Below, in pieces: positions 7,701 through 41,263 of a stretch of 60,124 nt of DNA (its first letter is position 1; each line of letters opens with the position of its first letter). The notes beneath the pieces are model-generated. The model was not told the origin of the DNA. It saw nothing but the letters and a program-made list of their open reading frames with translations, and searched no databases. The DNA is taken from positions 1 to 60,124 of IMG/VR virus record IMGVR_UViG_3300029448_000032; one strand, written 5' to 3'. The position numbers were made by a program, and so were the translations under genes. The stretch comes from a virus (Duplodnaviria > Caudoviricetes).

Positions 7701-9232
7701 TAGGAGAAGCTATTAAAGATAAGGAGTATTTTCTTAAGAAACCTCCTATGACTTTATCATATGGCCAAATGCTAGAGAATTTAACTGATTCTATAGGACA
7801 AGCAGTTATGGGTTCTTCTAGAATAAGAGAAATCATGAACAATAAAGATTTCAGAGAGTCTATTATTACTAGACAGCTGATAGCGCGGGGAAAAGATCCT
7901 TCTTCTATTGAGAAGTTAAGCCCTAAAGAGCGTAAAGAAATAGTTGGTAATGGTGTTATAGATTTTCTTCATAATATATTAGCAGATGCTATTGACTCTC
8001 AAATTCATCCAGGAATAACTGAAGTAGGCCAACTTATTAGAGCTAACGCTATGGTCTCTATAATGAGCGATGAGCTTATGACCATTGAAAGTGCGTTAGG
8101 TCTTCCAAATTATATAGGAGCTAAAGAAAGTCTTCAACAAACATATCAAGCTCCGCTTACAGGTACAGTACCTGGAAATAAAAGTATCGGAGATATATAC
8201 TTATTTAAGACTCAACCTTCTGGTAGTGCAATAAGAACAATCGAAACTCCAGGTGGGATTAAACAAATAGTAGGTGGATACACTTCAGGAAGAAGTATTC
8301 CAGCTATCATACAAGCTATTGATGGAGCTTGGATGAATAGGATGTTTACAGATTCTTTTAAAGGACCAAATGGATTACAAGATGCTTATATGGTACCTAT
8401 CTTTGATGCTGTTAAAACAGATTTAACAAGTGCTAGAAGAGTTAGAGAACATGCTAATCATAATTGGTGGAATGTTATAAAAGAGTATAATTACTTTGAT
8501 AGTCTTATGCAAGATTGGCAACCAAAAGCAAGTGAAAGGTTTACGAAACATCTTACAGATATCGGTGATACACCTATATCAAGCACTAATGGGTACGGAT
8601 TAACAGACGTAGCTGCATTTAATAGTAAAAAGCCTACAAGAAAGATACTTCAAGCGGGTAATCGCTATAAAGCTTTTCATGATTTCTTTACAGTAACTAG
8701 AGAAGACAGTAAATATTCTCAGGGCAATATGCTTAAAGAAGGAGATTTAAGTTTAGAAAATCTTATATCTGCATTTAAAACTTCAGGATTATTTCCTGCT
8801 CGTAAGAAAGGGCAAACAGTTAAGGCTTATAAAAAGCAAGTAAACGATGCAGCTACAGAACAAGCGAAGATGTTATTTCCTGAGATAGCACAATTTCATA
8901 TAGAGCAAAAACAGATTTTGAGTAATGTTAGGGAAGGAAGTATGACTGGGTTTCAAGGTAGAACTTGGGAAGAATACTATGCATTTTTAAATGAACATTC
9001 TACTAATGAACTCGGTGATAGACTAAGAGAGCTTAGAAGAATATATCAAATGGATCCTACTGGTAATGAGTTAAACTCCATATACCAAACAATAATAGGA
9101 AAATATGGTTTAGATTTAAAAGCTAGAAATGATAGTGTTACTAAGCAATATAGAAAAGCCCATGAAAACATGTTTAAGTTTGCTAAGAAATTGGCTAATG
9201 ATATTAGACTTCTTCAAATAGACATGGGATAA
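4706..9232 (+). CDS. Virion-encapsidated single-subunit RNA polymerase (mini N4-vRNAP-like)
   Basis: THRM..FNPQ, motif A VEFDGLTHG, motif B KKPPMTLSYG, PAIIQAIDG, motif C VPIFDA; no Cys seen; last gene of the ejection cluster. Confidence 0.85.
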   Translation: MAIRVNPQGALTEDTRAKVAENVKRMTMAERFKAKPLLKTPVDQLNVTGDRPYLTAVDDYKVNKFTPSANTSPYASTTVTRSRRERLDKEREDDINAKRYEEDLLAQKQLDREEALSEREPKIRAIWNQGVQQDEVGKRLTTAEADQLRLSTGVSESVVGIGDDATGHMIRRANRFVNLAHDTKLNFTSDDYARNIRADQSTISDETWARQSAAARKTGQTLTAAGFQLNDIMKDPTGRLSEAQIENIAQFAAGPNEKSRPRIGGMYIPKQTRGVNLGNVYEETSLRRGVQQAEGSLPLVSDPRNEGQYREATFLDQYNKEIISRTGSDKNVIDPLSVKGIMFNPDGFDAGVFDREGNMVVDPTALTTMALATEIFLNKAQYQKDTTPIEGDAVLEKESVKDKALREAQDTTFSPEGGIGRVEGNAELGREIFKSWKREQNLMNNRPSDQYNIDALSNNEFVALGTLAKEMYHMANPHLLTRISNEGGFDADAIGDHVNSSVEFRLTDLGKKVFLETQKSSPDAFRNYEIKARHSKKSRALQDTRTEKDVYLKSATTVIKPEVHEAIEEARFNMGNVGHVIDPLRRKIVTQLAITALAEMKKPGAIPKVGDFFDVGQVKLDAFNAELNNKRRSRNYVEGEYRPEYELEKQLTKLIEMLNTVGVNSNKVNYLDFVLQSLTHRMHAGQTRFNPQLIPLLRYITGGAVPTAVNTAGTSDANLMFKELMAIHFLKEDADGKKSKFDLPETRVKNFDAEWAKPNHGRLGPYISAGNAIRQSLLNNEQDAKYTEALSNIRLEEIKSDPLGQEQSLSDLAIQGGFEPVPESTSPLSKKAQGIVIPPELLDVPGLNMGDGLLNEASKEGIEGLHLVEAAHELAMWAEARKSNDPAKQTFNSNIGVEFDGLTHGPASWVATLGSIVAGYRTGMFRKPGATQKLDEFNRQNMLDVWLEHQPDEYVEADPSPDQVAGDFRNAMGVWMLSEGEKYANRVNPRHAAELYEILGEAIKDKEYFLKKPPMTLSYGQMLENLTDSIGQAVMGSSRIREIMNNKDFRESIITRQLIARGKDPSSIEKLSPKERKEIVGNGVIDFLHNILADAIDSQIHPGITEVGQLIRANAMVSIMSDELMTIESALGLPNYIGAKESLQQTYQAPLTGTVPGNKSIGDIYLFKTQPSGSAIRTIETPGGIKQIVGGYTSGRSIPAIIQAIDGAWMNRMFTDSFKGPNGLQDAYMVPIFDAVKTDLTSARRVREHANHNWWNVIKEYNYFDSLMQDWQPKASERFTKHLTDIGDTPISSTNGYGLTDVAAFNSKKPTRKILQAGNRYKAFHDFFTVTREDSKYSQGNMLKEGDLSLENLISAFKTSGLFPARKKGQTVKAYKKQVNDAATEQAKMLFPEIAQFHIEQKQILSNVREGSMTGFQGRTWEEYYAFLNEHSTNELGDRLRELRRIYQMDPTGNELNSIYQTIIGKYGLDLKARNDSVTKQYRKAHENMFKFAKKLANDIRLLQIDMG

Positions 9233-11837: not shown

Positions 11838-12186
11838 TATTTCTCCTAGTTTTGCGGAACGGATTATGTGTAACGTTAAACAGGTCACACCCATTCCTTA
11901 AGCAACATTTTATTTCATGAGATTCTACTACAGTAGCTTCTTTATCTGTCATCTGTCCACCTTTAATCACAACAACATCTTGTATTTTGTGGACAGACAA
12001 CTTATCAAGCAACCAAATATGGTGGTCATAACCACGGTTAGTTATCTGGTATGCTCTATGTAAAGTACCCTTACCAACGTATACTACGTTATCCGTTTCC
12101 GGATCTTTATGAAAGTAAACACAGTACATATCTTCAGGATACTTTACAACTTCATGGGTATCTTCTCTAATCTCTATCTGACGCAA
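11728..12186 (-). CDS. GIY-YIG-like nuclease
   Basis: YCVYFH...VVYVGKG..RA pattern; 3' end overlaps the RNAP gene. Confidence 0.55.
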   Translation of the reverse strand: MRQIEIREDTHEVVKYPEDMYCVYFHKDPETDNVVYVGKGTLHRAYQITNRGYDHHIWLLDKLSVHKIQDVVVIKGGQMTDKEATVVESHEIKCCLRNGCDLFNVTHNPFRKTRRNNAEHNRVFRTENYKYTAEVGSKAGERTQAGSEAVSI

Positions 12187-12613
12187 TTTCTACTCCATAT
12201 TTTTTGAGTAGTTCTAAAGGTTCTGTGTCAGGAACTCTAAGATCTAGCTCTTTACTAGGTTTACAGTATACTTTATCGTATACTAGTCTCTTAATACCCG
12301 CCTGTAATATGAGTTTAGTACACTCTTTACAAGGCGAGTATGTTAGATATAATGTAGCACCTTCAGAAGAAGAAGTTGAAGCAGCCAATTTAGCTATAGC
12401 ATTTGCTTCGGCATGAACGACTTCCCACTTAGTGTTTCCAGCACCATCGCGGGTTTCATTAATCATACCATGGGGAGTGCCATTCCAACCATAACTAAGT
12501 ATCTTATTACCATTAGCTATAACTGCTCCAACTTTATAGAGATTATCACGAGATCTTTTGCCAACTACTTCGGCCATCTTAAGATACATGTGATCGTCTT
12601 TAGATAACGTCAA
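12167..12613 (-). CDS. dCMP deaminase
   Basis: GWNG, HAEANAI, SPCKEC motifs. Confidence 0.93.
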   Translation of the reverse strand: MTLSKDDHMYLKMAEVVGKRSRDNLYKVGAVIANGNKILSYGWNGTPHGMINETRDGAGNTKWEVVHAEANAIAKLAASTSSSEGATLYLTYSPCKECTKLILQAGIKRLVYDKVYCKPSKELDLRVPDTEPLELLKKYGVEIASDRD

Positions 12614-17584: not shown

Positions 17585-17606
17585 ATGATTCCTTTCATAT
17601 TTATTA

Positions 17607-17633
17607 GTTGAAAAAGCGCGATGAATATCGCGC
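17607..17633 (-). promoter_or_regulatory. Hairpin element (GC stem), candidate vRNAP promoter
   Basis: gttgaaaaa-gcgcg-atgaatat-cgcgc just upstream of polA. Confidence 0.65.
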
Positions 17634-17646
17634 TTTATTAGGGATC

Positions 17647-17844
17647 TTAATAACCTTTAGTCTTATTTAATCCTTGTTCAATCTCTTTAATCCTATCTTT
17701 AAGTACATTGATAGTAATTAAGAGCTCATTATTTTTTACTGAAGTAACTTCCTCTAGTCTAGTAACTAAAATGTTTACTTCAATCTTTAAATAAAATAAA
17801 TGGTTGATGCTTTGGCTACTCATAGTTTTCATAACCGCCATCAT
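17647..17844 (-). CDS. Hypothetical coiled-coil protein
   Basis: ORF only. Confidence 0.5.
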   Translation of the reverse strand: MMAVMKTMSSQSINHLFYLKIEVNILVTRLEEVTSVKNNELLITINVLKDRIKEIEQGLNKTKGY

Positions 17845-18301
17845 TAGAATGATGTAGTATAATGTGAGTATCTCCTACGTTATCAGCATGGTTAGGTCCA
17901 ACCCATCCCTCTGGTTTAATCATATCAGGTAAACCTAATGGATTAGGTCTTGAAGGTTTCTTTCCAGGTTCTTTACTCATGTTAGCTTTATGAACCCTTG
18001 ACCAAGCTTTATTAGCGTCAACACCTAGAATATCTAACGTACCTATTGCTACCACACATAAATCTATAAGACCATCAACAACTTCTTGTGCGTTCTTATC
18101 TAACACGGCTGCAGCTTTAGTCTCGTTAAGTTCTTCTTCTAAGAATTTAATACGAAAATTTAAGAATTCTCTTAAAGTATTGTAGTCTTCTTCATCTATC
18201 TTACGAGCCATCCACTTATGCACACCAAATTTCTGATGCATTGCATGAATGTCTTCTGCCCACGAAGATCGTTTGCCATAAACTCCAGGATATTTCATCA
18301 C
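17816..18301 (-). CDS. MazG/PRA-PH-like NTP pyrophosphohydrolase (candidate dCTPase)
   Basis: EEELNE...DGLIDL...NMSK; adjacent to the dCMP hydroxymethylase. Confidence 0.8.
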   Translation of the reverse strand: MMKYPGVYGKRSSWAEDIHAMHQKFGVHKWMARKIDEEDYNTLREFLNFRIKFLEEELNETKAAAVLDKNAQEVVDGLIDLCVVAIGTLDILGVDANKAWSRVHKANMSKEPGKKPSRPNPLGLPDMIKPEGWVGPNHADNVGDTHIILHHSNDGGYENYE

Positions 18302-18359: not shown

Positions 18360-19106
18360 TCATCCAGACCTCATAGGTACTACATAGTCTTTAGGTTTAA
18401 TACATTCTTCTATTAAATGAAAATGTCTAGGATATACATGAAGGTTCTGAACCTGCCACGTAATATGCCCTGCTTCAAGACCGAGATCTATCGCAAGACG
18501 GTTAATTACTTTAACTTGCCAAGCATAATCATTAATGTACCCAAATACCGCATCGTTTGAGCGCATCTGAACTACACCATAGAGCGCTGTTCCTCTTTTA
18601 TAGTATGTTACAGCATTTGTACAGACAAAGTCATTCTTACCATGCTCTATGGCCGTCTGATGCATGTCTGGGTTTGTGTATATCATAGTAGCTCTTCGAG
18701 AATTAGGACGTAGCTTTAATTCTTGGACTACATTATTATATTGGCTGCCATTCTCTTTACTATAGATTAAGTATCCATAGTTAGAGTTAATGTCACCATC
18801 AGTATTAGCGGTTACATCCTTCCATATAGCAGGAACCTTACCGTAAATATCTCCTAAATCATTTACGTTTAGACTTTGAGAATCATACCACTCTAATTCA
18901 GCTTCAATGTACTTAACATTTCTTTCTCCGAATATAGTCGGTTCATCAGCAAGGAAGCTGGCAGCTCTTATCTCGAGCGTACCATCTTCCTGAAAGTCTT
19001 GGTTCTTATACAGTTGAATGAATTCTTTTTTGATTTCACCCGACAGCATTAGCTTCCTTTCTTCTATGTTTAAAATAGTGGTCAACCATTTGTTGGTCAC
19101 ATACAA
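18360..19106 (-). CDS. dCMP hydroxymethylase (T4 gp42-like, ThyA fold)
   Basis: ASFLADEP, ELEWY, INSNYG, SRRA.MIYT, DFVCTN, MRSNDAVFGYINDYAWQ, LHVYPRHF closely follow T4 gp42; true start may be MLSGE (~19049). Confidence 0.88.
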   Translation of the reverse strand: MYVTNKWLTTILNIEERKLMLSGEIKKEFIQLYKNQDFQEDGTLEIRAASFLADEPTIFGERNVKYIEAELEWYDSQSLNVNDLGDIYGKVPAIWKDVTANTDGDINSNYGYLIYSKENGSQYNNVVQELKLRPNSRRATMIYTNPDMHQTAIEHGKNDFVCTNAVTYYKRGTALYGVVQMRSNDAVFGYINDYAWQVKVINRLAIDLGLEAGHITWQVQNLHVYPRHFHLIEECIKPKDYVVPMRSG

Positions 19107-19453: not shown

Positions 19454-19921
19454 TTAAGATGGTATAGCTGAAGTTACTCCACTATGAGGGAATATCTCAC
19501 ACTCATGGCAGAACGGTTCTTCTAAAGTATTATCGTTAGGATCATCGTAAGATAACGAGTCTTGCCCACATATAGGACATAGACCACTATTAGGATTCTT
19601 ACGTTCTAACCATACGATACAACGACTCGCGTAGTTTATTAGATCTATTAAGCAGTCTTCAGCAGAATCAAAGTTAACATCACCATCTTGTTCCATTACA
19701 GACCGGAATCTTAAAATCTTGGTAGACATCATAGTGTCAAATGACTTCCATCCATGAGGATAATAGTCTTCATCACATACTGAGCCACCTTGATAGTCTT
19801 TATTCTTCTTACTCATAAGATCTATACATCGGCTAAGAACTTTCTTTGAGTCTTCTAAGTAAGATTCAGTACTCATAACTCTGAAGTCTAGATTATTATT
19901 GTTTCTTAAGTTTAATGACAA
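19454..19921 (-). CDS. Nucleotide-modification-associated domain (Nmad1/DUF1599-like) with C-terminal Zn finger
   Basis: KKNKDY...K..R...EDCLIDLINY; CPIC...CHEC. Confidence 0.7.
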   Translation of the reverse strand: MSLNLRNNNNLDFRVMSTESYLEDSKKVLSRCIDLMSKKNKDYQGGSVCDEDYYPHGWKSFDTMMSTKILRFRSVMEQDGDVNFDSAEDCLIDLINYASRCIVWLERKNPNSGLCPICGQDSLSYDDPNDNTLEEPFCHECEIFPHSGVTSAIPS

Positions 19922-19942
19922 AGCTTTCTCCTTTAATTTTAG

Positions 19943-19969
19943 GTTTAAAAAGCGCGATGAATATCGCGC
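19943..19969 (-). promoter_or_regulatory. Hairpin element (GC stem), candidate vRNAP promoter
   Basis: gtttaaaaa-gcgcg-atgaatat-cgcgc upstream of 19921. Confidence 0.65.
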
Positions 19970-19987
19970 CTTTTATCTAATCATCCA

Positions 19988-20842
19988 TTATGCTGCCAAT
20001 AAACTTTGAAATTGAGGAGAACTAGTCCATTTAGTTACCTCTTTTTCTCGGTTCCACATTGACACAGCTTGAGTATCGTTACCTGTGTTACGTAGTTTAA
20101 AACCATTACGCTTATCAGCATAACTAGCGTAGTTAGTGAATGCACTGTAGATAGAGTAAACGTTTTCTCCACGAGTAGATACTTCTTGGTTGTACAAAGA
20201 TACCATCTTCTCAGCTTGTTTTTCATTCATAATTTTCTTGAATAAATCTTCAACATCTGTATAAGCCGTTGATATTCTTGCCCAATTTTGTAGCATGTCG
20301 GCTTGCTCATAAAAATCGTTAGAAGATCTTTCAAGTTGAGTAGCGAAAGCTGCGATGCTAAAGCCTGAAGTGTTCTTACGTTTAACAATATCGTGCTCAC
20401 CTCTTATCATCTTGTTGGTGCAAAAGAAAGAGATCTGTCCATACACTACAGTGTTAGAGCATAAACCGTCTATTCCGTGTAAACCTATAATACGCTGACC
20501 GATTTTCTCTGAATGCTTGTCGGTAAAGATATCAAAACTTACGTTAGGTAACGTGATATCCATCATCATGAATCCCCCGTTACGAGCAGTACTCCATTTA
20601 ATATGGCAGTCTTGCAGCTCATTGTCGGTTAGTTTATCTTTCATAGTATTCCAAACTGTATGAGCAAAATTACTATGGTTAGTAGCTGTGAAGTCGTTAC
20701 CTACTACATTTAGGTACTGACCTGTGTCTTCTCGATATACATATTTCTTGCCATCGATTTTTGTCGGTTCATACCCTATATCAAAGCTTATATCATCGGG
20801 CACACTGAACTGATCTGTCCTTGTTGTAACATAATCTAACAT
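19988..20842 (-). CDS. DUF932-like protein
   Basis: REDTGQYLNVVG, HGIDG, FFCTNKMI, YSIYSAFTNYAS pattern. Confidence 0.7.
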   Translation of the reverse strand: MLDYVTTRTDQFSVPDDISFDIGYEPTKIDGKKYVYREDTGQYLNVVGNDFTATNHSNFAHTVWNTMKDKLTDNELQDCHIKWSTARNGGFMMMDITLPNVSFDIFTDKHSEKIGQRIIGLHGIDGLCSNTVVYGQISFFCTNKMIRGEHDIVKRKNTSGFSIAAFATQLERSSNDFYEQADMLQNWARISTAYTDVEDLFKKIMNEKQAEKMVSLYNQEVSTRGENVYSIYSAFTNYASYADKRNGFKLRNTGNDTQAVSMWNREKEVTKWTSSPQFQSLLAA

Positions 20843-20868
20843 TGTTATTCCTTCATTTGTTTCTAAGT

Positions 20869-21050
20869 GTGTAGGGAGGATTTGGGTTCACCTCCAACTA
20901 GTTCGACCGAGATACCATTCTCTAACCTACTAGAACTTGTTCCCACTCGGGAGAGTGATGTGATTCTTACTCGCTAGAGCTTGAACCTGGCTACCACGCC
21001 TGAACAATCAAGTTACGCCTCTTGGTAAGACGCGTTTCCTTGCACTACAC
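20869..21050 (-). ncRNA. Structured ncRNA, manA-RNA-motif-like
   Basis: Intergenic; terminal stem GUGUAG/CUACAC, stems CGCGUCUU/AAGAGGCG and GGAGG/CCUCC, long-range GGUUC/GAACC and CCGAG/CUCGG; family name is from recall. Confidence 0.65.
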
Positions 21051-21129
21051 TATTTGACCCGTCGGTCAAAACGGTTTATACGAGAAAGCCGTAAGACGTT
21101 TTGCGCCACATATTTTTCTCGTATTCTTT

Positions 21130-22846: not shown

Positions 22847-23338
22847 TTAGAATGGCAATTGTTTCTCTTCAGCAGGTTTAGTTTCTGTTGATTCGACAAC
22901 ATCGAAACCAGCTGTTGGAGTATATTCAACTAATTCTACGACTTGAACCGCAGTTAGTGAAGTAGCTATGCCGCTACGTCCTGGAGCTTCATAAGCGTAT
23001 TGCCAAAGATTTACGTTTACCTTTGAGCCGTTGCCAATGTTGTCACCAGTAATTGGAGTTAGTTTAGCGTCAACGATTTTAACTGGAGCATTTGGGTTTC
23101 CATCGGCTTTAATGCCTTTACGCTTTAAGTTCACAGAGAAAAGCTTTTCGTCTTCTTTGTCTTGTTTGACAGTAAGACCATGATCTTTAAGCTCTTGAAC
23201 TTTTGCAGGATCACTAGTTTGAATCATCATTTCCCACTGTTTAGATCCAAATGGATTAACAGGAGCATCTGATCCAGAGATTCGGCAGAATTTAGCAGTT
23301 AAATCTTTAACAATTATTGAACGAGGATAATCACTCAT
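22847..23338 (-). CDS. Single-stranded DNA-binding protein (T7 gp2.5-like)
   Basis: IGNGS.V.V, L.AVQVVELVEY, acidic tail ending LPF. Confidence 0.85.
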   Translation of the reverse strand: MSDYPRSIIVKDLTAKFCRISGSDAPVNPFGSKQWEMMIQTSDPAKVQELKDHGLTVKQDKEDEKLFSVNLKRKGIKADGNPNAPVKIVDAKLTPITGDNIGNGSKVNVNLWQYAYEAPGRSGIATSLTAVQVVELVEYTPTAGFDVVESTETKPAEEKQLPF

Positions 23339-23382
23339 TTTTAAGGTTCCTTTATAGACTAAGTTAAGTTAAAAGATATTAT

Positions 23383-23409
23383 GTTTAAAAAGCGCGATGA
23401 ATATCGCGC
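23383..23409 (-). promoter_or_regulatory. Hairpin element (GC stem), candidate vRNAP promoter
   Basis: gtttaaaaa-gcgcg-atgaatat-cgcgc upstream of the SSB gene. Confidence 0.65.
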
Positions 23410-23442
23410 CTTTAACATAGGGTAGTAAGGTAGTATAGAGAG

Positions 23443-23640
23443 TTATTTAAAGAATATAATATAGAGAAGAGAAAAAGTCGCAAAAACAAAACATGTCATT
23501 GAGACTATGAATGCTATCACGTCGGGTTGATAGTATCCAAGATCGGCCACTCTAGTACTTTCCATAGAATTTAGAAATATAATTCCCATGTAAGTATAAA
23601 GGGCAGAAAGGGCAAGAAAAGAGATTCTAGTTAGTATCAT
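23443..23640 (-). CDS. Small two-TM membrane protein
   Basis: Two hydrophobic segments; start MILTR after GGAGG. Confidence 0.6.
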   Translation of the reverse strand: MILTRISFLALSALYTYMGIIFLNSMESTRVADLGYYQPDVIAFIVSMTCFVFATFSLLYIIFFK

Positions 23641-23720
23641 TTGAAGCCTCCTGATAGCCAGTAGCAATACCCGAAGGCAGCTAATAGTGTGGTTAATGAG
23701 ATAAAAATATTAAAGAGCAT
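23637..23720 (-). CDS. 27-aa single-TM peptide
   Basis: MLFNIFISLTTLLAAFGYCYWLSGGFK with AAAGGA RBS and ATGA overlap. Confidence 0.5.
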   Translation of the reverse strand: MLFNIFISLTTLLAAFGYCYWLSGGFK

Positions 23721-23737
23721 GTTGGTTCCTTTCGGGG

Positions 23738-23765
23738 AAAAAGGCGACAGCCCGAAGGCTGCCGC
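23738..23765 (-). terminator. Intrinsic terminator with UUCG loop
   Basis: GCGGCAGCC-UUCG-GGCUGUCGC followed by a U-run. Confidence 0.85.
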
Positions 23766-23779
23766 AGTTTGCACATTAA

Positions 23780-24046
23780 CTAGTTAACAAGGCATTTATC
23801 GTTATGGGTAGGTAATTTTTTAATCTTTTCCATGATTTCCATTACCTTATCCATTGATAAGCGGCCCATAACATCATCAGCTATTGGAGTATCATAACAG
23901 ATATCCCAGAAGTCAGAAAAGCCTTCAGATGTTTTAGTCCATTTGACTACAGCTAGTTCATATAGACCTTTTTCAGATCCATAGCCATTATCTATTATAC
24001 TAGCACCATAGCCATTATCGAAGCGAGAGATAGTTTGAGTCATCAT
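23780..24046 (-). CDS. Conserved phage hypothetical protein
   Basis: FDNGYGASII...GLYELAV...DDVMG pattern. Confidence 0.7.
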   Translation of the reverse strand: MMTQTISRFDNGYGASIIDNGYGSEKGLYELAVVKWTKTSEGFSDFWDICYDTPIADDVMGRLSMDKVMEIMEKIKKLPTHNDKCLVN

Positions 24047-24204
24047 ATTTCCTTTCTATTTGATCTATGTGATCTTCTCCAAATTAAAAACTTAGGGTCG
24101 TGATGTTTGCCATAACAATCGGCACAATAAGTATTTTGTGGTATTTTTACATATATAAAAGCATTAGGCTTACAACATGTAATGCACTTAGTTTCAACTT
24201 TCAT
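24043..24204 (-). CDS. 53-aa Zn-finger protein
   Basis: MKVETKCITCC...YCADCY...; GAAAGGA RBS; translated by hand. Confidence 0.55.
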   Translation of the reverse strand: MKVETKCITCCKPNAFIYVKIPQNTYCADCYGKHHDPKFLIWRRSHRSNRKEI

Positions 24205-24226
24205 TCTGTATCCTTTCTGTGTTTAT

Positions 24227-24333
24227 CGCGGAGGAAGGATCCGTGCCTTCCAACTTCTACCCCTAAAGCAGAAGAGCTTACCACTTACGGTAACCGAACT
24301 ATGGCTAGGTAACCATTATTATTCGCATCCGCG
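24227..24333 (-). ncRNA. Candidate multibranched structured RNA
   Basis: Closing stem CGCGGA/UCCGCG enclosing four short hairpins. Confidence 0.35.
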
Positions 24334-24426
24334 TATAGATCATAATAGCGCTTATATTACAAGAATTTTACTAATTAAATAGGACGTAGCGAGCGTCAAC
24401 GATTATTTCTATTACGATCTATATTC

Positions 24427-24819
24427 TTATAAGAAAAAGAGCTCATCTCTGGCTTTCATAAGTAGCTCAGGAAAAGCTTTTTTCCAATAGCCTTTTTCTT
24501 GGACATGCGTAAGTTCATATCCTTTAGTTTTCCATAAAGCTTTTAAAGCATAATCATGCTCATTAAAGCTCTTTAAAATAAGCTTATACATTAGAGTTCG
24601 ATTAATATCTTTATTGGCTTTATAGTTTCCAGTATGCTTTACACCATTATCCCATTTCTTATTATAGGTTAGTTCATCGAATGTTCCAGATTTCCAAGTC
24701 TGGTACGCATGCTCAACGGATTTATATTCTAGTCCGTTAGTATCTTTAAATGGTCTAAGAGAAAGATTGCTTAAGATAGCATTCTCTCCGGTTCCATAAT
24801 ATATATTTAAGGTTTTCAT
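24427..24819 (-). CDS. NADAR/YbiA-like protein
   Basis: LSNL..RPF...G.EYKSVEHAYQ..K, M..LI..SF, L..T.G.EL, LMKARDEL. Confidence 0.7.
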   Translation of the reverse strand: MKTLNIYYGTGENAILSNLSLRPFKDTNGLEYKSVEHAYQTWKSGTFDELTYNKKWDNGVKHTGNYKANKDINRTLMYKLILKSFNEHDYALKALWKTKGYELTHVQEKGYWKKAFPELLMKARDELFFL

Positions 24820-24847
24820 AATGTGCCTTTCGTATTATTTATATTAA

Positions 24848-24875
24848 GTTTTAAAAATTTTATGGATATAAAATT
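24848..24875 (-). promoter_or_regulatory. Hairpin element (AT stem), candidate vRNAP promoter
   Basis: gttttaaaa-atttt-atggatat-aaaat upstream of the NADAR gene. Confidence 0.65.
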
Positions 24876-24910
24876 GGATGTCGGCATACACTACGGTATT
24901 ACTTTGTTTT

Positions 24911-24935
24911 AAAAGAGCACCTTGCGATGCTCTTT
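24911..24935 (-). terminator. Intrinsic terminator with GCAA loop
   Basis: GAGCAUC-GCAA-GGUGCUC-UUUU downstream of the stop at 24944. Confidence 0.75.
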
Positions 24936-24943
24936 AGAGAGGT

Positions 24944-25393
24944 TTAATTAAGCGCAGGATCGCTAGTAGGATGCTCTATTTCAGTATTATAGAGAAACGT
25001 AGTAGGATCTTCGAGTGCAGTAGATACAGCAGGCCAATCAGGGCAGAATTCATTGAACTCTTTTTGTGTCCACTTATAGTTATTTTTGTTGTGGTAAGGA
25101 TCGTCGATTAATGCATGCATATTAGCATAATGCTTTATCCACGATGCGAACTCTATACGAACATATTGATCGACAGACCAAGGCGAGGTTTGCGGGCCAA
25201 ATTGCTTATGGATATCATTGCTGATATCGTCGACTGTTTGCAGCTTATTGGTTGTAGGATGGAACATTAAGGTGCGAACTAGTTGGCTTGCAATAGCTTC
25301 AGCTGCGAAGTTAGGTGGTTCAACATATGACTCAAGTTTAGCTGGATCGTATTTAATGTTGGTATTATATTTATTCTTTTTACGCATGTGCAT
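24944..25393 (-). CDS. Early hypothetical protein
   Basis: ORF flanked by its own hairpin element and terminator. Confidence 0.7.
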   Translation of the reverse strand: MHMRKKNKYNTNIKYDPAKLESYVEPPNFAAEAIASQLVRTLMFHPTTNKLQTVDDISNDIHKQFGPQTSPWSVDQYVRIEFASWIKHYANMHALIDDPYHNKNNYKWTQKEFNEFCPDWPAVSTALEDPTTFLYNTEIEHPTSDPALN

Positions 25394-25446
25394 AGACTTT
25401 CTATATTATTATTGTTGTTGATATATTAAAGATTAGATTAATATAT

Positions 25447-25474
25447 GTTTTAAAAATTTTATGAATATAAAATT
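25447..25474 (-). promoter_or_regulatory. Hairpin element (AT stem), candidate vRNAP promoter
   Basis: gttttaaaa-atttt-atgaatat-aaaat. Confidence 0.65.
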
Positions 25475-25631
25475 TGAGGAATGTAAAGGAAGTATATATG
25501 TTGAAGGATAAAGAGGTCCGCTAACCTTCAGGTTGGTGGGCTCGTGGGTGCCGCGAGGTGTCACAATAATCATGCAAATGTTGTACTTAGTAGAGGTATA
25601 GGGAGTGTTACCGCCCTGCCGGACCCCCTTT

Positions 25632-25647
25632 TCTCTAATAGGAGACA
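25632..25647 (-). promoter_or_regulatory. T7-style phage promoter (leftward)
   Basis: Reverse complement reads TGTCTCCTATTAGAGA, identical to the copy at 47970. Confidence 0.65.
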
Positions 25648-25711
25648 GTTCTGGCCTGCCTTACGCTAGGCGGTATATCACTACGGTGCAACCACTGCGG
25701 TGAAACTTTAA

Positions 25712-25739
25712 AAAAATAACCCCGTTAGGGGTTATTTTT
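25712..25739. terminator. Bidirectional-type terminator after the G-less gene
   Basis: aaaaataacccc-gtta-ggggttattttt. Confidence 0.8.
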
Positions 25740-25751
25740 AGTGTGTGGAAG

Positions 25752-26132
25752 TTAGAAGGGAAGATTAGTATTAGGAATAGAAGGTGGAGTAGAAGAAGTA
25801 GAGGTAGGAGTAGTGGTAGAAGTAGAGGTAGAAGGTTGAGATTGGATAGGAGAAGTAGAAGGAAAAGTAGAAGGTTGAGGGTTGAAAGGAATATTAGAGG
25901 AAGGTGCAATAATATCAGGAGTAGAAGGAAGGTTTAGTTTTTGGTTGATAGTATTGTGGAATTTAGGGTAGAAGGTATTAGTTTGAGTATTATAGAGAAG
26001 ATAGTAAAGTTGAAGAGATTTGTTAGTTTTAGAGATTAAATGGTTGAAGTTAGGATGGGTGAAGAAAGTATGAAAGTTATTTAATTGAGGAGTATTATAT
26101 AAAGGATTGAATATATTTGTAAATGGTGACAT
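25752..26132 (-). CDS. Outermost early gene with a near G-free mRNA; 126-aa N/T/P/S/F/L-rich protein
   Basis: Only 3 G in 381 nt; leader GAAAG(G)CACATTATG shared with 24819; own hairpin element and terminator. Confidence 0.65.
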   Translation of the reverse strand: MSPFTNIFNPLYNTPQLNNFHTFFTHPNFNHLISKTNKSLQLYYLLYNTQTNTFYPKFHNTINQKLNLPSTPDIIAPSSNIPFNPQPSTFPSTSPIQSQPSTSTSTTTPTSTSSTPPSIPNTNLPF

Positions 26133-26183
26133 AATGTGCTTTCTATTAGTTAATGTGAAATATTTTAAAAAGAGATAAAATAT

Positions 26184-26211
26184 GTTTTAAAAATTTTATG
26201 GATATAAAATT
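26184..26211 (-). promoter_or_regulatory. Hairpin element (AT stem), candidate first vRNAP promoter
   Basis: gttttaaaa-atttt-atggatat-aaaat. Confidence 0.65.
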
Positions 26212-26239
26212 TGTGGTTAAGAAAGAGAATTGATTTAGA

Positions 26240-26293
26240 ATAGAGAGAGATAGTGAGGAAGAGTTTGTTGAAGGATAGAGAGAGATAGTGAGG
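26240..26293. repeat. 19-bp direct repeat ATAGAGAGAGATAGTGAGG (two copies) at the strand switch
   Basis: Copies at 26240-26258 and 26275-26293. Confidence 0.8.
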
Positions 26294-26395
26294 GAAGAGA
26301 GAGAGAGGAATGATGAGGGAAAAAGTAGGGGGCCTGAAAAAGAGGGATGGGGTATATATATATATTATAATTTTTTAAGGTTTCTCTTAAAGAAG

Positions 26396-26411
26396 TGTCT
26401 CCTAGTAGAGA
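26396..26411 (+). promoter_or_regulatory. T7-style phage promoter upstream of the terminase
   Basis: TGTCTCCTAGTAGAGA. Confidence 0.65.
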
Positions 26412-26609
26412 TAACAATTGGTTAAATTTTTAGCCAGGAGGTAACTACTTGATAATAGTTCTCTGTAACGATCCTTGTGATGACATCTCAGGATCCGTAC
26501 TAGATTGGACTAAGAAAGCTACGTCTAACGTTAAAAGCCTTAATGAGAAGAGAATTAATAAAACTAACGAGAAGAACCAATCAGTTCTTGCTAGCTCTTG
26601 GGAAAAACT

Positions 26610-28253
26610 ATGGAAAATAAAAGGAAGCTCGCCCTCGTCAAAGAAGCGAGAAAACGAAAACTACTAAACGACTACAAAACTAATTTTGAAAATTTCTCCA
26701 AAGATCAAATCAAAATAATAACAAAAGATGCTGCTAGAGGATTTACTCCCTTTATATTTAATGATGCTCAAAGAAAAGTTAATGAAGCATTAGAGAAACA
26801 ACTTAAAGAAAAAGGAAGAGTAAGAGCATTAATCTTAAAAGCTCGTCAACAAGGTATATCTACTTACTGTACTGCTCGTACTGCATGGAAGAGTTTCTTT
26901 ACGCCTAACGCAAGATCGGTTGTAATGGCTCATGATAGTGCGACTTCAGATGCCTTATTTAGTATGAGCAAGAACCTCATAGATAAAATGGAAGACGAAT
27001 TCCGGCCTCAACTTATAGCATCAAATGCTAAGGAGATTAAATTTGAACATAACAACGCGGGTTATAGATTATATACGGCTGGCTCTCCGGAAGCTGGCCG
27101 TGGAACTACCCCTACAATTGCTCACCTTAGTGAGGTGGCCTTTTGGACTTTTGACGAGAAGATTCTCGCCGGACTATTCCAAGGTATCTCTCAAGCTGAC
27201 GGTACCGAAGTTATCCTGGAGTCTACGGCCAACGGTGCTAAAGGAGAATTTTATAGATTATGGAGGACGGCTGAACAAGGCTATGAAAGAGGCGATTCTG
27301 AATACATACCTATATTTCTACCTTGGTTTGTCACTAACGAATATAGGAGGGAAGCTCCTGAGAATTTTGAACCTGATGCAAAAGAGCGTGAGCTTATGGA
27401 CGAGCATGGCTTGGATTACAGCCAGCTTTATTGGAGACGCCTTAAAATTGCTGAGTCGGGCGAAAGGAAATTTGTCCAGGAGTATCCGAGCAATCCTGAA
27501 GAAGCGTTCTTAGTAACAGGTAGTAGTGTCTTTGATTTAAAGAAATTAAATTCTTTTGAACCTGCACCGTACCTTAAAAAGATGCATTTAGATTTAGATT
27601 CAAAATTCTTTGAAGATACTAATGAAGGAGATATAGAAATTTATGATTATCCTAACCATGATACAGGATATGTTATAGGAGCTGATGTTGCTTTAGGAGT
27701 AGGAAAAGATTATTCTGCTGCAGTAGTATTAAATGAAAATAGACAAATTGTTTCTGCTTATAGAAATAATCTTATAGATCCTAGTAAATTTGGCGATTTT
27801 TTATTTTACTTAGGAAGATACTATAATAATGCTTTGCTTGCTGTAGAGTCTAACTCTATGGGAATTGCTACTCTACAAAAGCTAGATGATATGGGGTATG
27901 TAAACCTATACAAGCAAACAAAGATAGCTAACGTCAGTAGAGAAGAAGGAGAAAGACTAGGGTTTAGAACTACTGTAGCAACAAGAAGTACAATCATAGG
28001 AAACTTGAAGAACGCTATAGAGAACGATGATGTATATGTACCTAGTATAGATATTATCCAAGAACTGAAGGATTATATAGTTAATGACCACGGAAAAGCT
28101 GAAGCAGCTCCAGGATGCCATGATGACTATGTTATGTCTCTTGCTATTGGCCTAGAGGTGTTAAGATCTCACTATGACCGTATAACAACTAACAAGGTAC
28201 CCTGGAACCAGAAGTTCTCTACTGTAGAACAGGATAATACAAAATGGTTATAA
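26610..28253 (+). CDS. terL: Terminase large subunit
   Basis: LKARQQGIST, HLSEVAFW, ESTANG, GADVALG, HDDYVM. Confidence 0.95.
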   Translation: MENKRKLALVKEARKRKLLNDYKTNFENFSKDQIKIITKDAARGFTPFIFNDAQRKVNEALEKQLKEKGRVRALILKARQQGISTYCTARTAWKSFFTPNARSVVMAHDSATSDALFSMSKNLIDKMEDEFRPQLIASNAKEIKFEHNNAGYRLYTAGSPEAGRGTTPTIAHLSEVAFWTFDEKILAGLFQGISQADGTEVILESTANGAKGEFYRLWRTAEQGYERGDSEYIPIFLPWFVTNEYRREAPENFEPDAKERELMDEHGLDYSQLYWRRLKIAESGERKFVQEYPSNPEEAFLVTGSSVFDLKKLNSFEPAPYLKKMHLDLDSKFFEDTNEGDIEIYDYPNHDTGYVIGADVALGVGKDYSAAVVLNENRQIVSAYRNNLIDPSKFGDFLFYLGRYYNNALLAVESNSMGIATLQKLDDMGYVNLYKQTKIANVSREEGERLGFRTTVATRSTIIGNLKNAIENDDVYVPSIDIIQELKDYIVNDHGKAEAAPGCHDDYVMSLAIGLEVLRSHYDRITTNKVPWNQKFSTVEQDNTKWL

Positions 28254-28782: not shown

Positions 28783-28873
28783 TTATTAACATAATTTGTT
28801 TTGCTTTTATGGGAATTGGTTTTGCTGTAAATGTGGCTCTTTTAATCCATCTTTCACAAATAAAGGATCGAAT

Positions 28874-29584
28874 ATGATAAATGAGATAAAAGTAGATCTT
28901 ATAGATTCTTGTGGTACAGACTTAACTGTAGTTAATGCTGCAAGAGTATCATTCGATAAAGAAGCAGAGTGGGGTTGGGAGAGATACGATCAAGATGACT
29001 TTAAGAGAGTATTAAGACCAAGAGACAAAAAACTTATTGAGTACTTAGCTGAGCATGAACACTGGAGTCCTTTTGCCCACACGTTTTTGCAATTCAGAAT
29101 AACAGCTCCAATCTTTGTTGCTCGTCAGTTGGGTAAACATCAGGTAGGCCTAGTATGGAACGAGGTTAGCAGAAGATATGTAGACGAAGATCCTGTATTT
29201 TTTAAACCTAAAGAATTTAGAGGAAAACCTATAAATAAAAAGCAGGGAAGTTCTAAAGAAATAATAGATATAAATCCTTCTACAGGGTCTGGTCCTATGT
29301 TTGTAGATGAATATGATAGAGTCATGAACACCAGTAAGTGGACATATAATCAGTTATTAAGTTTAGGTGTATGTCCTGAGCAAGCACGTTTAGTATTACC
29401 ACAAGCAATGATGACGAGCTGGTATTGGTCAGGATCTTTGTTTGCTTTTTCGAGAGTATATAACTTACGAAGTAAAGAGGATGCTCAAGAAGAATGTCAA
29501 GATGTAGCTAAAGAATTAGATAAACATTGTAAACATAAATTTCCTATATCGTGGAAACACTTAACCACAGGAACTGTCCCCTAA
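28874..29584 (+). CDS. thyX: Flavin-dependent thymidylate synthase
   Basis: VVNAARVS, HWSPF, PIFVARQL.KH....NEVSRRY, EQARLVLP, AQEE. Confidence 0.92.
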   Translation: MINEIKVDLIDSCGTDLTVVNAARVSFDKEAEWGWERYDQDDFKRVLRPRDKKLIEYLAEHEHWSPFAHTFLQFRITAPIFVARQLGKHQVGLVWNEVSRRYVDEDPVFFKPKEFRGKPINKKQGSSKEIIDINPSTGSGPMFVDEYDRVMNTSKWTYNQLLSLGVCPEQARLVLPQAMMTSWYWSGSLFAFSRVYNLRSKEDAQEECQDVAKELDKHCKHKFPISWKHLTTGTVP

Positions 29585-29590
29585 TAGAGA
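29575..29590 (+). promoter_or_regulatory. T7-style phage promoter
   Basis: TGTCCCCTAATAGAGA overlapping the thyX stop. Confidence 0.6.
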
Positions 29591-39140: not shown

Positions 39141-40010
39141 ATGGCTTTAACATATACTCAGCTAACAGCATTAGTTCGTAGTTGGTCTAATAGAGATGAA
39201 GAAGTTGTAAGTGATGCTATAATTCAAGATGCTTTAAAATACGCAGCAGACAAAGCATATAGAACTTTAAGAGTACCTCCACTAGAAAATGTTGCAGTAT
39301 ATGAAAAAACACTATTGGATTCAGGAACTATTGGAGCTAGTGCCCATCATCAAAGCAGAACACAAATAAAAGTTCCTTTTGATTTGATAGAGATTATACA
39401 AGTAAAAGAACTAGATTCTTCAGGTTTACCAACTAGAGTATGGAACGAAAAAGTAGATGTAAGAACTTTCAATGATCCTGGCGCAGAAAAATATACTGGA
39501 AATAATTATTTTACAAGAGAGAAAAATGTATTAATTCTTTCTCCAGGCTTTGGAGAAAATACATTAGGTAATCCTGCTAATTCTATTGAACTACTATATT
39601 ATAGAAGATTACCAGCATTAAACGCAAAATATGCTGTGACTACCCTTAACTATTCTGCAGGATTTCTTACTACGTCAGGAGGAACAACTGCGTTATATTT
39701 TGTAAACGGTAACACAACAACCGCTTACGCTACATCTACAGAAGCAACTGCTGCTGCAGATGGTGCAGGAACAAATACAGCTAACTATATAGGAACAGAC
39801 GTCCCTAACTGGTTACGAGATGAAAATGAGAGGATACTATTATACGGAGCGTTAGCCCAAGTGTTTGCCTTTGTCCAAGATGATGAACAAGCTCTAAAAT
39901 ACGAAAAAATGTTTGTAGATGAGATTGCACAGTTGAACGATGAAGATGCTAAACGCAACGCATCAGGCGGTAATATACAAATCAATTTTAACGGGAGAGG
40001 ATTGATATGA
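39141..40010 (+). CDS. Head-tail adaptor (SU10-like)
   Basis: TYTQL...WSNR, RTLRVP, YYRRLPAL, NWL...LLYGAL. Confidence 0.75.
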   Translation: MALTYTQLTALVRSWSNRDEEVVSDAIIQDALKYAADKAYRTLRVPPLENVAVYEKTLLDSGTIGASAHHQSRTQIKVPFDLIEIIQVKELDSSGLPTRVWNEKVDVRTFNDPGAEKYTGNNYFTREKNVLILSPGFGENTLGNPANSIELLYYRRLPALNAKYAVTTLNYSAGFLTTSGGTTALYFVNGNTTTAYATSTEATAAADGAGTNTANYIGTDVPNWLRDENERILLYGALAQVFAFVQDDEQALKYEKMFVDEIAQLNDEDAKRNASGGNIQINFNGRGLI

Positions 40011-41263
40011 CAACAGCAGCTAGACCCGGCCAATTTACTGGTGCTACAGATAATGCGGCTAATGGTGGATTATTTACAGACACGAAAATTGACGGGATTC
40101 CAGATTTAGTAGCAGCAGACGTTTTAAGTGCACAAACTTCTGCAACGACCGCTACAACTCAAGCAGCTACAGCTACTACACAAGCAACTACAGCGACAAC
40201 GAAAGCTACAGAAGCAGCGGCTTCAGCAACTGCAGCAGCTAGTTCCGCAACTGCAGCAGCTTCAAGCGCAACAAGCGCAGCGTCTAGTGCTACAACAGCT
40301 AGTAACTCTGTATCTTCTGTTAATACAAACGCTACAAATGCCGCTGCAAGTGAAACAGCCGCGGCAACTAGTGCAACAAACGCGGCAGCTTCAGCTTCAA
40401 CAGCTTCTACGCAGGCCACAAGCGCTACAACACAGGCAAACTCTGCCTTATCTAGTGCTTCTGCAGCGAGCACAAGTGCTACTAACGCAGCTAGTTCTGC
40501 CACAACTGCAAGTGGTCATGCTACAACTGCAAGCGGTCATAAAGACACAGCAACAACAAAGGCTAGTGAAGCAAGTACGAGTGCAACAAACGCAAGCAAT
40601 TCTGCTTCAACTGCTACAACAAAGGCTAGTGAAGCCGCTACAAGCGCAACAAATGCAAGTAACTCAGCGACTACTGCTACAACACAAGCTAGTACAGCAA
40701 CAACAAAGGCTAGTGAAGCCGCTACAAGCGCTACAACCGCTCAAAACTACGCATTAAAAGTGGATGGAGCTGTAGAAAGTTCTAATCATTCTGCTAAAGC
40801 TTGGGCTATTGGAGGAACAGGAGTTACTGATACTGCTGGTTCAGGATCAGCAAAGTCTTGGGCAGTAGAAGCAGACGCAGTAGATGGAACAGAGCATTCA
40901 GCAAAGTCTTATGCTATATCAGGTACAGCAATAGCCGCAGGATCAGCTAAGCAATGGGCTATAGGTGGTGGATCTGGATTTAGTACTAATACAGCTGTAG
41001 CTGGAGGAGTTTATTCAGCTAAGTATTATGCAGAACAAGCGGCAGCTTCAGCTGATTCTTTTGATGACGTATACTTAGGAGCTAAAAGTTCAGCGCCTTC
41101 ACAAGATAACGATGGTGATGCTTTGACAACTGGCGACTTGTATTATAATACTAGTGATAATGATCTATATGTTTATAATGGTTCAGCATGGGAAGTTGCA
41201 GCAACAAGTGTAGCAAGTCTTCCAACAGCAGGATTTACTATCGCAATGGGAATAGCCTTATAA
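40007..41263 (+). CDS. Tail fibre with Ala/Thr/Ser coiled-coil repeats
   Basis: ATTKASEAATSA repeats, SAK.WA repeats, FDDVYLGAKSSAP..DNDGDAL. Confidence 0.8.
   Translation: MTTAARPGQFTGATDNAANGGLFTDTKIDGIPDLVAADVLSAQTSATTATTQAATATTQATTATTKATEAAASATAAASSATAAASSATSAASSATTASNSVSSVNTNATNAAASETAAATSATNAAASASTASTQATSATTQANSALSSASAASTSATNAASSATTASGHATTASGHKDTATTKASEASTSATNASNSASTATTKASEAATSATNASNSATTATTQASTATTKASEAATSATTAQNYALKVDGAVESSNHSAKAWAIGGTGVTDTAGSGSAKSWAVEADAVDGTEHSAKSYAISGTAIAAGSAKQWAIGGGSGFSTNTAVAGGVYSAKYYAEQAAASADSFDDVYLGAKSSAPSQDNDGDALTTGDLYYNTSDNDLYVYNGSAWEVAATSVASLPTAGFTIAMGIAL

Follow-up and report, generated by a model that had tools for sequence, protein, structure and literature searches.

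The first early transcription unit of a marine podovirus is written, on its sense strand, in essentially three letters. It lies in the window, that is the whole 60,124-nucleotide (nt) stretch analysed here (virus record IMGVR_UViG_3300029448_000032, Caudoviricetes), which represents an entire phage contig. An original prediction made from the letters alone had described positions 25724-26383 as a natural G-less cassette encoding the first gene. The tract is a real, selected and strand-specific feature. Gene order and sequence identify it as the opening transcription unit of the early/replication arm in a phage of the Roseobacter phage CRP-7 type, and it sits beside the point where this arm diverges from the terminase/structural arm. 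As read from the letters, a promoter region comes first, then a leader of 200-300 nt that bears a conserved C-run motif and an A/T hairpin; a small protein gene follows, and a hairpin terminator closes the unit. The missing base, which is G in the window and A in CRP-7, returns only where nothing can stand in for it. Such places are the initiation codon and the ribosome-binding site, the termination codon in the A-less gene, a handful of charged residues, and the stem of the terminator. These features point to strong selection on the nucleic acid itself. The reading that we favour, with a probability of roughly 40%, is that a target-poor first-expressed, and possibly first-exposed, unit escapes base- or motif-directed host attack. 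The components of the unit are as follows.

25724..26383, minus strand: three-letter tract, sense strand without G, spanning promoter region to terminator stem.
26353..26371, no strand assigned: (TA)6 and then the palindrome ATTATAAT, a candidate, by position and conservation, for the -10 region of 'P1', the first promoter pointing left.
26133..26352, minus strand: C/U-rich 5' leader of about 220 nt, whose only G are the GG at 26333-26334 and the two G of the ribosome-binding site at 26139 and 26143.
26317..26336, minus strand: a motif conserved among leaders, in which a C-run leads into a T/C-rich stretch, with GG ahead of the motif in the window.
26240..26293, minus strand: two exact 19-nt direct repeats in the leader (26240-26258 and 26275-26293; 2 matches against 0.05 expected).
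26176..26216, minus strand: 41-nt element with an A/T-only hairpin (26191-26212; 9-bp stem, 4-nt loop), 54 nt upstream of the ATG.
25752..26132, minus strand: G-free open reading frame (ORF) of 126 amino acids (aa), with a predicted small folded N-domain and disordered tail.
25710..25739, no strand assigned: 12-bp hairpin resembling an intrinsic terminator, bordered by an A-run and, across from it, a T-run; G and C reappear here.

A direct count of the plus strand of 25724-26383 gave 248 A, 205 G, 200 T and 7 C, in agreement with the original prediction. The 7 C (25907, 25916, 26130, 26139, 26143, 26333 and 26334) correspond on the minus strand to one Ala codon, one Asp codon, the ATG, the two G of the ribosome-binding site and the GG of the leader. 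Sliding base counts, the check that had been proposed, placed the tract at the C minimum of all 660-bp windows of the contig (mean 111.9, standard deviation 21.0); the corresponding minima for the other bases were 158 for A, 80 for G and 111 for T. Under a binomial model, a count this low (7 C or fewer) has a probability of 1.3e-42. The longest C-free runs (213, 189, 183 and 116 nt) all fall inside 25402-26332, and the longest run lacking any base other than C is 42 nt. Within the ORF 25752-26132 (minus strand) only 3 G occur in 378 nt, namely those of the ATG, one Asp codon and one Ala codon, exactly as had been claimed. When the protein was held fixed, the synonymous choices alone gave P = 10^-6.8 with the codon usage of the 28 other contig genes as reference, in which G-free codons make up 44-61%.

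Chance, low complexity or an assembly artefact could be suspected because short repeats are present within the tract. Yet the same sequence, with few differences, was recovered on contigs of three other runs from three studies (X2 record 3, covering 25624-26397; X3 record 22, covering 25555-26564; X5 records 28 and 29), and at least half of the sampled words were present in 12 of the 24 runs listed, from 11 studies. Since independent contigs cover the same sequence, the tract is not an assembly artefact. Together with a P of 1e-42 and the coding-type divergence seen at many loci (see below), this makes an accidental origin a negligible explanation.

The minus-strand arm of the genome runs from 26132 down to 9477. 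Its first gene is the G-free ORF and its last encodes an 805-aa T7-like RNA polymerase; it also encodes a gp2.5-like single-strand-binding protein, a family-A DNA polymerase, a primase-helicase, an exonuclease and a dCMP (deoxycytidine monophosphate) deaminase. The plus-strand arm starts at 26449, runs rightwards and wraps around to 9232 (the contig ends overlap by 98 nt, inside an ORF); it carries TerL, portal, capsid and large virion proteins. Gene orientations switch at the tract, which thus marks the divergence of the two arms and heads the early one. The nearest cultured phage is CRP-7, with an RNA polymerase 33% identical (E 1e-122) and a TerL 56% identical; CRP-7 is described in PMC6918029 as a podovirus founding a new, widespread marine group.

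In the promoter region, all relatives conserve a block that closes with (TA)n. The window's copy contains the palindrome ATTATAAT (26364-26371), and a C-run comes next; a (TA)n block followed by a C-run was seen at 13 of 13 loci compared. Position and conservation suggest that P1 is the promoter and that its start site lies just ahead of the C-run. A similar leader motif is found in the leaders of all relatives and in the A-less leader of CRP-7. The two 19-nt repeats occur in this leader alone and are distinct from the motif that precedes other genes. The 41-nt element is present in three copies (26176-26216, 25439-25479 and 24840-24880), copies 2 and 3 preceding the second and third gene of the arm, and in relatives L013 and L016 the hairpin is kept although the stem sequence differs. 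The terminator-like hairpin starts 12 nt past the end of ORF 26132-25752; it was absent from the output of one separate scan of the region. An Rfam search over 25350-26600, at gathering thresholds and at E up to 5, gave nothing meaningful. The tract therefore covers, as proposed originally, the first gene of the leftward arm with its shared hairpin leader and a terminator, and the A/T-only element is found three times. The leader had also been said to be shared with a NADAR gene: copy 3 does precede ORF 24427-24819, but the NADAR match of that ORF is below the Pfam cut-off (17.6 bits against 35.1).

The unit is flanked by two diverging copies of a promoter-like motif.

26397..26411, plus strand: motif GTCTCCTANTAGAGA, rightward, 38 nt before the small ORF 26449-26667 and TerL.
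25632..25646, minus strand: the same motif GTCTCCTANTAGAGA, leftward, just past the terminator.
29576-29590 and 47971-47985, both plus strand: the two further good copies of the motif.

This 15-nt motif has 5 matches at up to 2 mismatches, against 0.66 expected. All 4 good copies are in gene orientation, and those at 26397, 29576 and 47971 (plus strand) lie 28-42 nt before a start codon. A conserved form of the motif is about 19 nt long and ends in CCTANTAGAGA. Its position and form suggest that GTCTCCTANTAGAGA/CCTANTAGAGA is likely the promoter of the phage's own T7-like RNA polymerase; since just four good copies were found, other promoter classes must exist. The tract bounds delimit one unit, because they extend from the (TA)n/-10 region to the terminator, between the two diverging motifs. 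The G-free unit is served by neither of them, which fits a reading by the host polymerase before the phage enzyme exists. The original prediction had instead invoked a virion RNA polymerase (vRNAP), and this was not supported: the single RNA polymerase found is the 805-aa T7-like enzyme at the far end of the same arm. No polymerase match was obtained for the virion ORFs 618-4715 (Pfam, PHROGs) and 4706-9232 (Pfam, PHROGs, PDB), nor for ORF 57139-60123 (PHROGs), and ORF 49790-54046 matched structural families only (Pfam, PHROGs, PDB); a very divergent enzyme could escape such searches in any of them.

In order to compare relatives, we used 29 loci (L numbers) anchored on the large terminase TerL (26598..28253, plus strand, the first large gene of the rightward arm); 21 of them include the region upstream of TerL, and their TerL is 84-99% identical to that of the window. 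Relatives of normal composition, which had been named as evidence against the prediction, do exist: 9 of the 21 have no C-depleted tract at this place, whereas 12 keep one. No tract depleted in another base was found in the 29 loci. The tracts are of three sizes.

L002, L006, L013, L016, L017, L018 and L020: long tracts of 603-1072 bp with 0-6 C.
L003, L004, L005 and L027: 255-bp tracts.
L007: a 114-bp tract.

The feature is frequent but dispensable, since 9 of 21 relatives are without a long tract. All seven long tracts encode homologues of the window ORF, and the G-less property, whose retention despite protein divergence had been suggested as a check, is kept in at least four deep lineages at about 35-40% protein identity. 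The non-coding leader is G-free too. Between L013 and L016, codon positions one to three carry 13, 4 and 22 differences. Inside the tract none of the 39 substitutions between these two loci involves G, compared with 53 of 101 in the flanks. The ratio of nonsynonymous to synonymous rates (dN/dS) in the family is 0.13-0.41. Comparative evidence of this kind indicates that ORF 25752-26132 is a real gene under purifying selection as a protein. Opposite-strand ORFs in the tract, such as a 64-aa Arg-rich plus-strand ORF, were rejected: they are not common between loci, and the codon-position pattern fits the minus frame. The copies in L013, L016 and L018 have no ribosome-binding site. That of L018 (458-814, minus strand) is an intact frame of 118 codons within 603 bp containing 0 G; it opens with ATT after two TAA codons and has no ATG, GTG or TTG. 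The database protein P0003, of the L018 type, had been called with another, shorter start.

Apart from M1 and a single D and A, the G-free protein is built from F L I S P T Y H Q N K. In its structural model (mean predicted local distance difference test score, pLDDT, 61.5) a helical N-domain that includes a hairpin is followed by a disordered tail, rich in P/S/T, whose last residues are LPF. No match was found in Pfam, PHROGs, the PDB by Foldseek, BFVD or a protein atlas. An exhaustive profile search yielded 12 family proteins at E <= 1e-3. Residues requiring a G-containing codon account for 0-7% in 9 of the 12 but 28% in P0008, 22% in P0012 and 17% in P0009; the mean of other contig genes is 43%. 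The replacements are conservative: for D, V, E, G, R and M of the normal members, the G-free ones mostly carry N, I/L, Q, N, K and I, respectively. Judged from these alignments, the G-free protein is recoded from a protein family of normal alphabet. A tblastn search of cultured phages with the normal-alphabet homologue gave no match. In L001, whose TerL is 97.6% identical to that of the window at the DNA level, the P0008 relative is the fourth gene and adjoins the same G+C-rich element as in the window (see below); the three genes ahead of it have 28-29% G on the sense strand. P0009 had no match in viral contigs but six metagenome loci carry its type, with genes of 4.6-15% G, the lowest in L038, directly after a G-poor leader, and the highest in L040, behind another gene. 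As the G share rises with distance in P0009- and P0008-type loci, the depletion comes in degrees and peaks at the arm's head. A different first-gene family, about 168 aa long and with 28-34% G on the sense strand, is present in L001 (1749-2255, minus strand), L007, L008, L009 and L011.

A counterpart lacking A instead of G was found in CRP-7 (record MK613349). On the plus strand, 57384-58069 (686 nt; L031:38-723, minus strand of the locus) contains 10 A, located in the ATG at 57608, one Asp, three Glu and one Lys codon, the TAA at 57992-57994 and one further position. The stretch consists of a 224-nt A-free leader, a 128-codon ORF (P0014) and a G+C hairpin region; 37 nt separate its end from the ribosome-binding site of gp01, which comes first among the early genes in the annotation. 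The leader has a G-run/C-run followed by a T/C-rich stretch, resembling the motif of the window group, and the residue set of P0014 is F L S C W P R V A G. Seven IMG/VR loci carry P0014 relatives, and all six examined have an A-depleted tract (533-610 bp, 2-5 A). In L046, L048 and L049 the tract directly adjoins a diverging ORF of 541-546 aa, which in L046 and L049 is 61-64% identical to the window TerL. The family shows 23, 13 and 43 differences at codon positions one to three in the plus frame and a dN/dS of 0.22-0.42. The annotated gp72 of CRP-7 lies on the strand opposite to this coding-type divergence; its call is doubtful, and probably wrong, because stop codons cannot occur on a strand that has no A or no T. 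No similarity between the G-free and A-free protein families was detected by hhalign, and their models differ in fold: that of the A-free protein (pLDDT 64) has a disordered N-terminus and a beta-beta-beta-alpha-beta-beta domain, for which Foldseek gave weak rows resembling the oligonucleotide/oligosaccharide-binding fold (E 0.03 or worse, template-modelling score about 0.45), a lead only. By these measures the A-free gene is under purifying selection as a protein and is unrelated to the G-free one. The three-letter property belongs to the position, since the lineages drop different bases, in unrelated proteins, at the same place. The second gene is also A-poor, with 11-13% A, in L045 (2147-2584), L046 (2970-3407) and L049 (2951-3391, all plus strand), whose loci typically have 20-45 A per 100-nt bin, and the second gene of the window, at 16% G, is partly depleted too; this suggests that the constraint fades in a gradient away from the junction.

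Explanations that depend on G itself, such as GTP (guanosine triphosphate) supply, a G-specific nuclease, Rho or unstructured RNA, fail to carry over to CRP-7, because it drops A and not G. One alternative is a nucleic-acid element with a role of its own. The ORF might live inside a Rho-loading stretch, an unstructured leader for translation without a ribosome-binding site, an origin or a packaging signal. The window transcript would suit such roles, being one C>G stretch of about 600 nt (C 32.5%, G 0.8%, as Rho utilisation would demand) whose folding energy over 614 nt is only -14.4 kcal/mol, whereas other sense windows give -143.8 +/- 16.7; C>G bubbles are a stated prerequisite of Rho-dependent termination in PMC6144790. 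The lack of a ribosome-binding site in L013, L016 and L018, the lack of an ATG in L018, and the leader motif kept in all relatives and CRP-7 could be read in the same way. Nevertheless, in the CRP-7 transcript G (30%) exceeds C (27%) and folding is strong, at -215 kcal/mol where shuffles give -192 +/- 8, so Rho loading and lack of structure do not carry over, and depletion across the whole ORF exceeds what a leader function needs. We regard a structural or regulatory element as rather unlikely.

A mutational origin would see strand-specific base damage or deamination acting on an exposed early unit, with the proteins adapted to what remained. The coincidence of the depletion with the transcription unit, the gradient in the second gene, and the identity of the missing bases with those lost in the classical G-to-A and A-to-G hypermutation patterns would all be expected. 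The replacements argue otherwise: E to Q, which takes a G-to-C change, is as common as transition-type replacements, and the charge-reversing E to K is rare. In addition, G is lost from the sense strand, whereas a cytosine deaminase would take C of the exposed non-template strand, and close relatives have normal or G-rich genes at the same place. Such an equilibrium appears improbable.

The original prediction had further proposed that the first template must be free of modified cytosine. Modified cytosine itself proved plausible, given the following genes.

18360..19106, minus strand: dCMP hydroxymethylase homologue, E 6e-55 to PDB 1b49 (the T4 enzyme).
18360-19106, 12167-12613, 17816-18301 and 19454-19921 (minus strand) and 28796-29584 (plus strand): pyrimidine-gene ORFs.

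The hydroxymethylase homologue keeps the cytosine-specifying Asp, which is Asn in deposited mutant chains, and on this ground the window DNA probably carries 5-hydroxymethylcytosine (hmC). The T4-like pyrimidine set also includes the dCMP deaminase, two MazG-like pyrophosphatases and ThyX; a 69-aa ORF matches the ends of nucleotide-kinase PHROG profiles. Even without a vRNAP, a C-free template strand could be kept free of hmC and thus be easily read by an unmodified host polymerase. The comparison with relatives makes this highly improbable. The enzyme is also present in four of five relatives without a G-free gene, and some hydroxymethylase carriers have first genes of 28-34% G; CRP-7, where no hydroxymethylase, dCMP deaminase or ThyX homologue was found, drops A. 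Moreover, T4 hmC templates are read by host polymerase.

A supply-based explanation can be framed more broadly. The unit would be transcribable without GTP in the window, or without ATP in CRP-7, and would be indifferent to a shortage or a poisoned analogue; equally, the complementary DNA strand could be made without dCTP or dTTP. The low-GTP form of this idea, offered in the original prediction, is not general, as the CRP-7 types lack A. The broader form accounts for a depletion that spans the whole transcript and nothing beyond, for few retained bases, which match a per-base cost, and for the one purine that stays in each lineage to start the chain. The phage's pyrimidine-pool genes (hydroxymethylase, dCMP deaminase, two MazG-like enzymes and ThyX) are in keeping with it, and bacterial viperins make chain-terminating nucleotide analogues. 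On the other hand, translation of the same messenger requires both ATP and GTP, G-rich first genes suffice in close relatives, and we know of no GTP-depleting defence. We consider three-nucleotide synthesis unlikely.

We favour target avoidance because a site-poor duplex and a transcript free of both-purine motifs are common to both alphabets. Selection would act on the nucleic acid of the first-expressed stretch and make it poor in targets. A duplex with one strand lacking a base would offer no recognition site that needs this base and its complement on one strand; every palindrome with the missing base pair would be removed, which for 6-bp palindromes rules out 56 of 64 possibilities. The transcript and the displaced non-template strand, deprived of one purine, would be free of motifs needing that purine or both purines. 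The first protein could then be made before host cutting or modifying enzymes disable the unit, and the relevant target may be the DNA, the displaced strand or the mRNA. Consistent with this, only 5 and 10 GA or AG dinucleotides are left in the two alphabets, the sense strands of both lineages are about 30% purine with a purine dropped in each, and G+C-only palindromic 4-mers are scarce in the CRP-7 tract (9 against 21.5 +/- 4.5), which we count in favour of target avoidance.

Several observations weigh against it. Palindrome avoidance by first-entering DNA, one option of the original prediction, is possible in a base-agnostic form, but the window lineage does not avoid A/T-only palindromes: they are not scarce in the window tract (25 against 30.7) and are enriched in L013, L016 and L018 (6-mers in L013, 50 against 22.1). 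Genome ends are not marked, the assembly being circular with its overlap within an ORF, and the CRP-7 record starts at gp01. The nearest solved relative of the window TerL is T4 gp17; T4 packaging is headful, and headful packaging implies no fixed leading end. The feature is not obligatory, as shown by the nine relatives without a long tract and the first genes of 28-34% G. In an hmC phage, G:C-containing sites would already be shielded from classical restriction. The loss of a purine from the sense strand in both lineages is not predicted by a duplex-level view, although two cases are few and a common pyrimidine-rich leader may explain them. Finally, the case is made from sequence: host, defence system, transcription start and protein product were not observed, and the single RNA run (X20) gave no usable cover of the tract, only low-complexity pieces of 37-49 nt with 2-3 mismatches at 25786-25834, and pieces in TerL.

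Target avoidance can be stated in a bolder form, which we put forward tentatively and hold to be doubtful: in this clade of abundant marine podoviruses the three-letter first gene might be a general stealth device against purine-directed host immunity. The first messenger and the displaced strand would, on this doubtful extension, present no substrate to attacks directed at purines or both-purine motifs; guanine ADP-ribosylation of single strands, mRNA ADP-ribosylation at GA and GGAG-type RNases could conceivably be such attacks. The weakly NADAR-like gene two genes downstream might, equally tentatively, form a second line against the same attack.

The region downstream of the unit contains further elements of the early arm.

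25520..25631, minus strand: G+C-rich element past the leftward motif, 88% identical in L001 with differing flanks; variant contigs diverge at 25674.
25402..25517, minus strand: second C-free tract, 116 nt with 0 C as originally noted, the leader of the second gene, with hairpin copy 2 at 25454-25475.
24944..25393, minus strand: second early gene, 149 aa, no family match, sense G 16.0% and C 23.6% (reversed skew).
24427..24819, minus strand: third early gene, weakly NADAR-like, preceded by hairpin copy 3 at 24855-24875 and missing from some variants.
22847..23338, minus strand: gp2.5-like single-strand-binding protein, C-terminus ...EEKQLPF.
24437-24866 and 24438-25521: stretches skipped in variant contigs of other runs.

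The G+C-rich element region (25520-25700) has counterparts in L001 (1-169) and also in L006, L002, L010 and L014. Its folding scores are z = -2.9 on the plus and z = -1.4 on the minus strand, and it may serve as a structured 5' leader and as a joint at which early-gene cassettes recombine. The early arm is hypervariable over its first 3 kb: contigs of other runs skip the NADAR-like gene or both it and the second gene, and in the interval that separates the binding-protein gene from the block upstream of TerL (compared over 23400-26350), relatives show no similarity in DNA. The second early gene follows the G-free gene in L013, L016 and L018 as well. The third matches PHROG 1017 (function unknown) at E 2e-8, and a PDB search up to E 1 gave nothing for it.

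The last residues are ...NTNLPF in the G-free protein and ...EQDDLPF in the homologue of normal alphabet from L001. In L013, L017 and L020 the binding protein and the G-free protein both end in F; the pattern fails in L002 and L006. The G-free protein may, from these endings, mimic the C-terminal tip of the single-strand-binding protein. Elsewhere in the minus arm, a 38-nt G+C-hairpin element occurs three times between genes (17600-17637, 19936-19973 and 23376-23413), where it may serve as a terminator or middle promoter, and a manA RNA motif (Rfam RF01745, 71 bits, E 4e-16; 20865-21069, minus strand) lies upstream of ORF 19988-20842. On the plus strand, 40130-40760, inside ORF 40007-41263, holds arrays of 21- and 63-nt period encoding an Ala/Ser/Thr-rich repeat protein and has the highest G+C of the contig (0.47).

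These data reveal a selection on nucleic-acid composition strong enough to override the amino-acid alphabet of a conserved protein, and they provide natural proteins, folded according to models, made from 10-11 residue types. The pressure is position-specific and acts at the start of infection in a widespread marine phage group; its agent may be a new kind of host attack. The feature is directly testable, since CRP-7 and its host are in culture. They also expose an annotation trap: strands without A or T have no stops, as in the gp72 case, and gene callers cannot start an ATG-less copy.

Known systems share parts of this picture. Restriction-site avoidance is described in the first-injected (first-step-transfer) DNA of T5-like phages (PMC10644984) and in the leading region of marine Autographiviridae (PMC12455610); target avoidance agrees with these precedents and with the MazF one below. 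As in those reports, the outcome would be decided before protection by a short, variable stretch that heads the early genes, and the window unit likewise heads a hypervariable early region in a podovirus with a T7-like RNA polymerase. The difference is that single motifs are missing in the systems reported there, whereas here one strand is deprived of an entire base across 530-1070 bp and the protein is recoded; besides, the window lineage does not avoid A/T-only palindromes. Engineered ACA-less transcripts are reported to be still translated under MazF (PMC5408214). As there, the transcript here would be made immune by taking the target out of the coding sequence with the protein kept, but the transcripts of that report are engineered and lack one triplet, whereas the window unit is natural, lacks one nucleotide and has no known cognate nuclease. 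G-poor 5' leaders are reported to evade SARS-CoV-2 NSP1 shut-off (PMC11975289). There, as is proposed here, the base composition of its G-poor or G-free 5' part lets a viral messenger evade an attack on expression; that system, as reported, is eukaryotic and concerns the leader only, unlike the present one, where the whole unit is affected and the missing base varies by lineage. With the C>G bubbles of Rho, the window transcript shares a C-rich, G-free and unstructured character; those tested in PMC6144790 were 20-355 bp, whereas the window stretch is about 600 nt and translated, and that of CRP-7 is not C>G.

The window resembles the T4 hmC pathway in having a dCMP hydroxymethylase with the cytosine-specifying Asp and a dCMP deaminase. 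The promoter hairpins of the N4 vRNAP have a 5-7-bp stem and a 3-nt loop; the window hairpins differ in their 9-bp A/T stem and 4-nt loop, and no giant virion RNA polymerase was matched. According to PMC6526412, the majority of naturally occurring DNA and RNA is without long stretches missing one nucleotide. In the literature searched, no prior description of natural protein-coding genes kept free of one nucleotide was found. The closest artificial likeness is the laboratory G-less cassette, a non-coding stretch of about 400 nt that can be transcribed without GTP and whose non-template strand, as here, is without G. The window unit differs in being natural, protein-coding and conserved and in having an A-less counterpart, and natural G-less and A-less cassettes are themselves potential tools.

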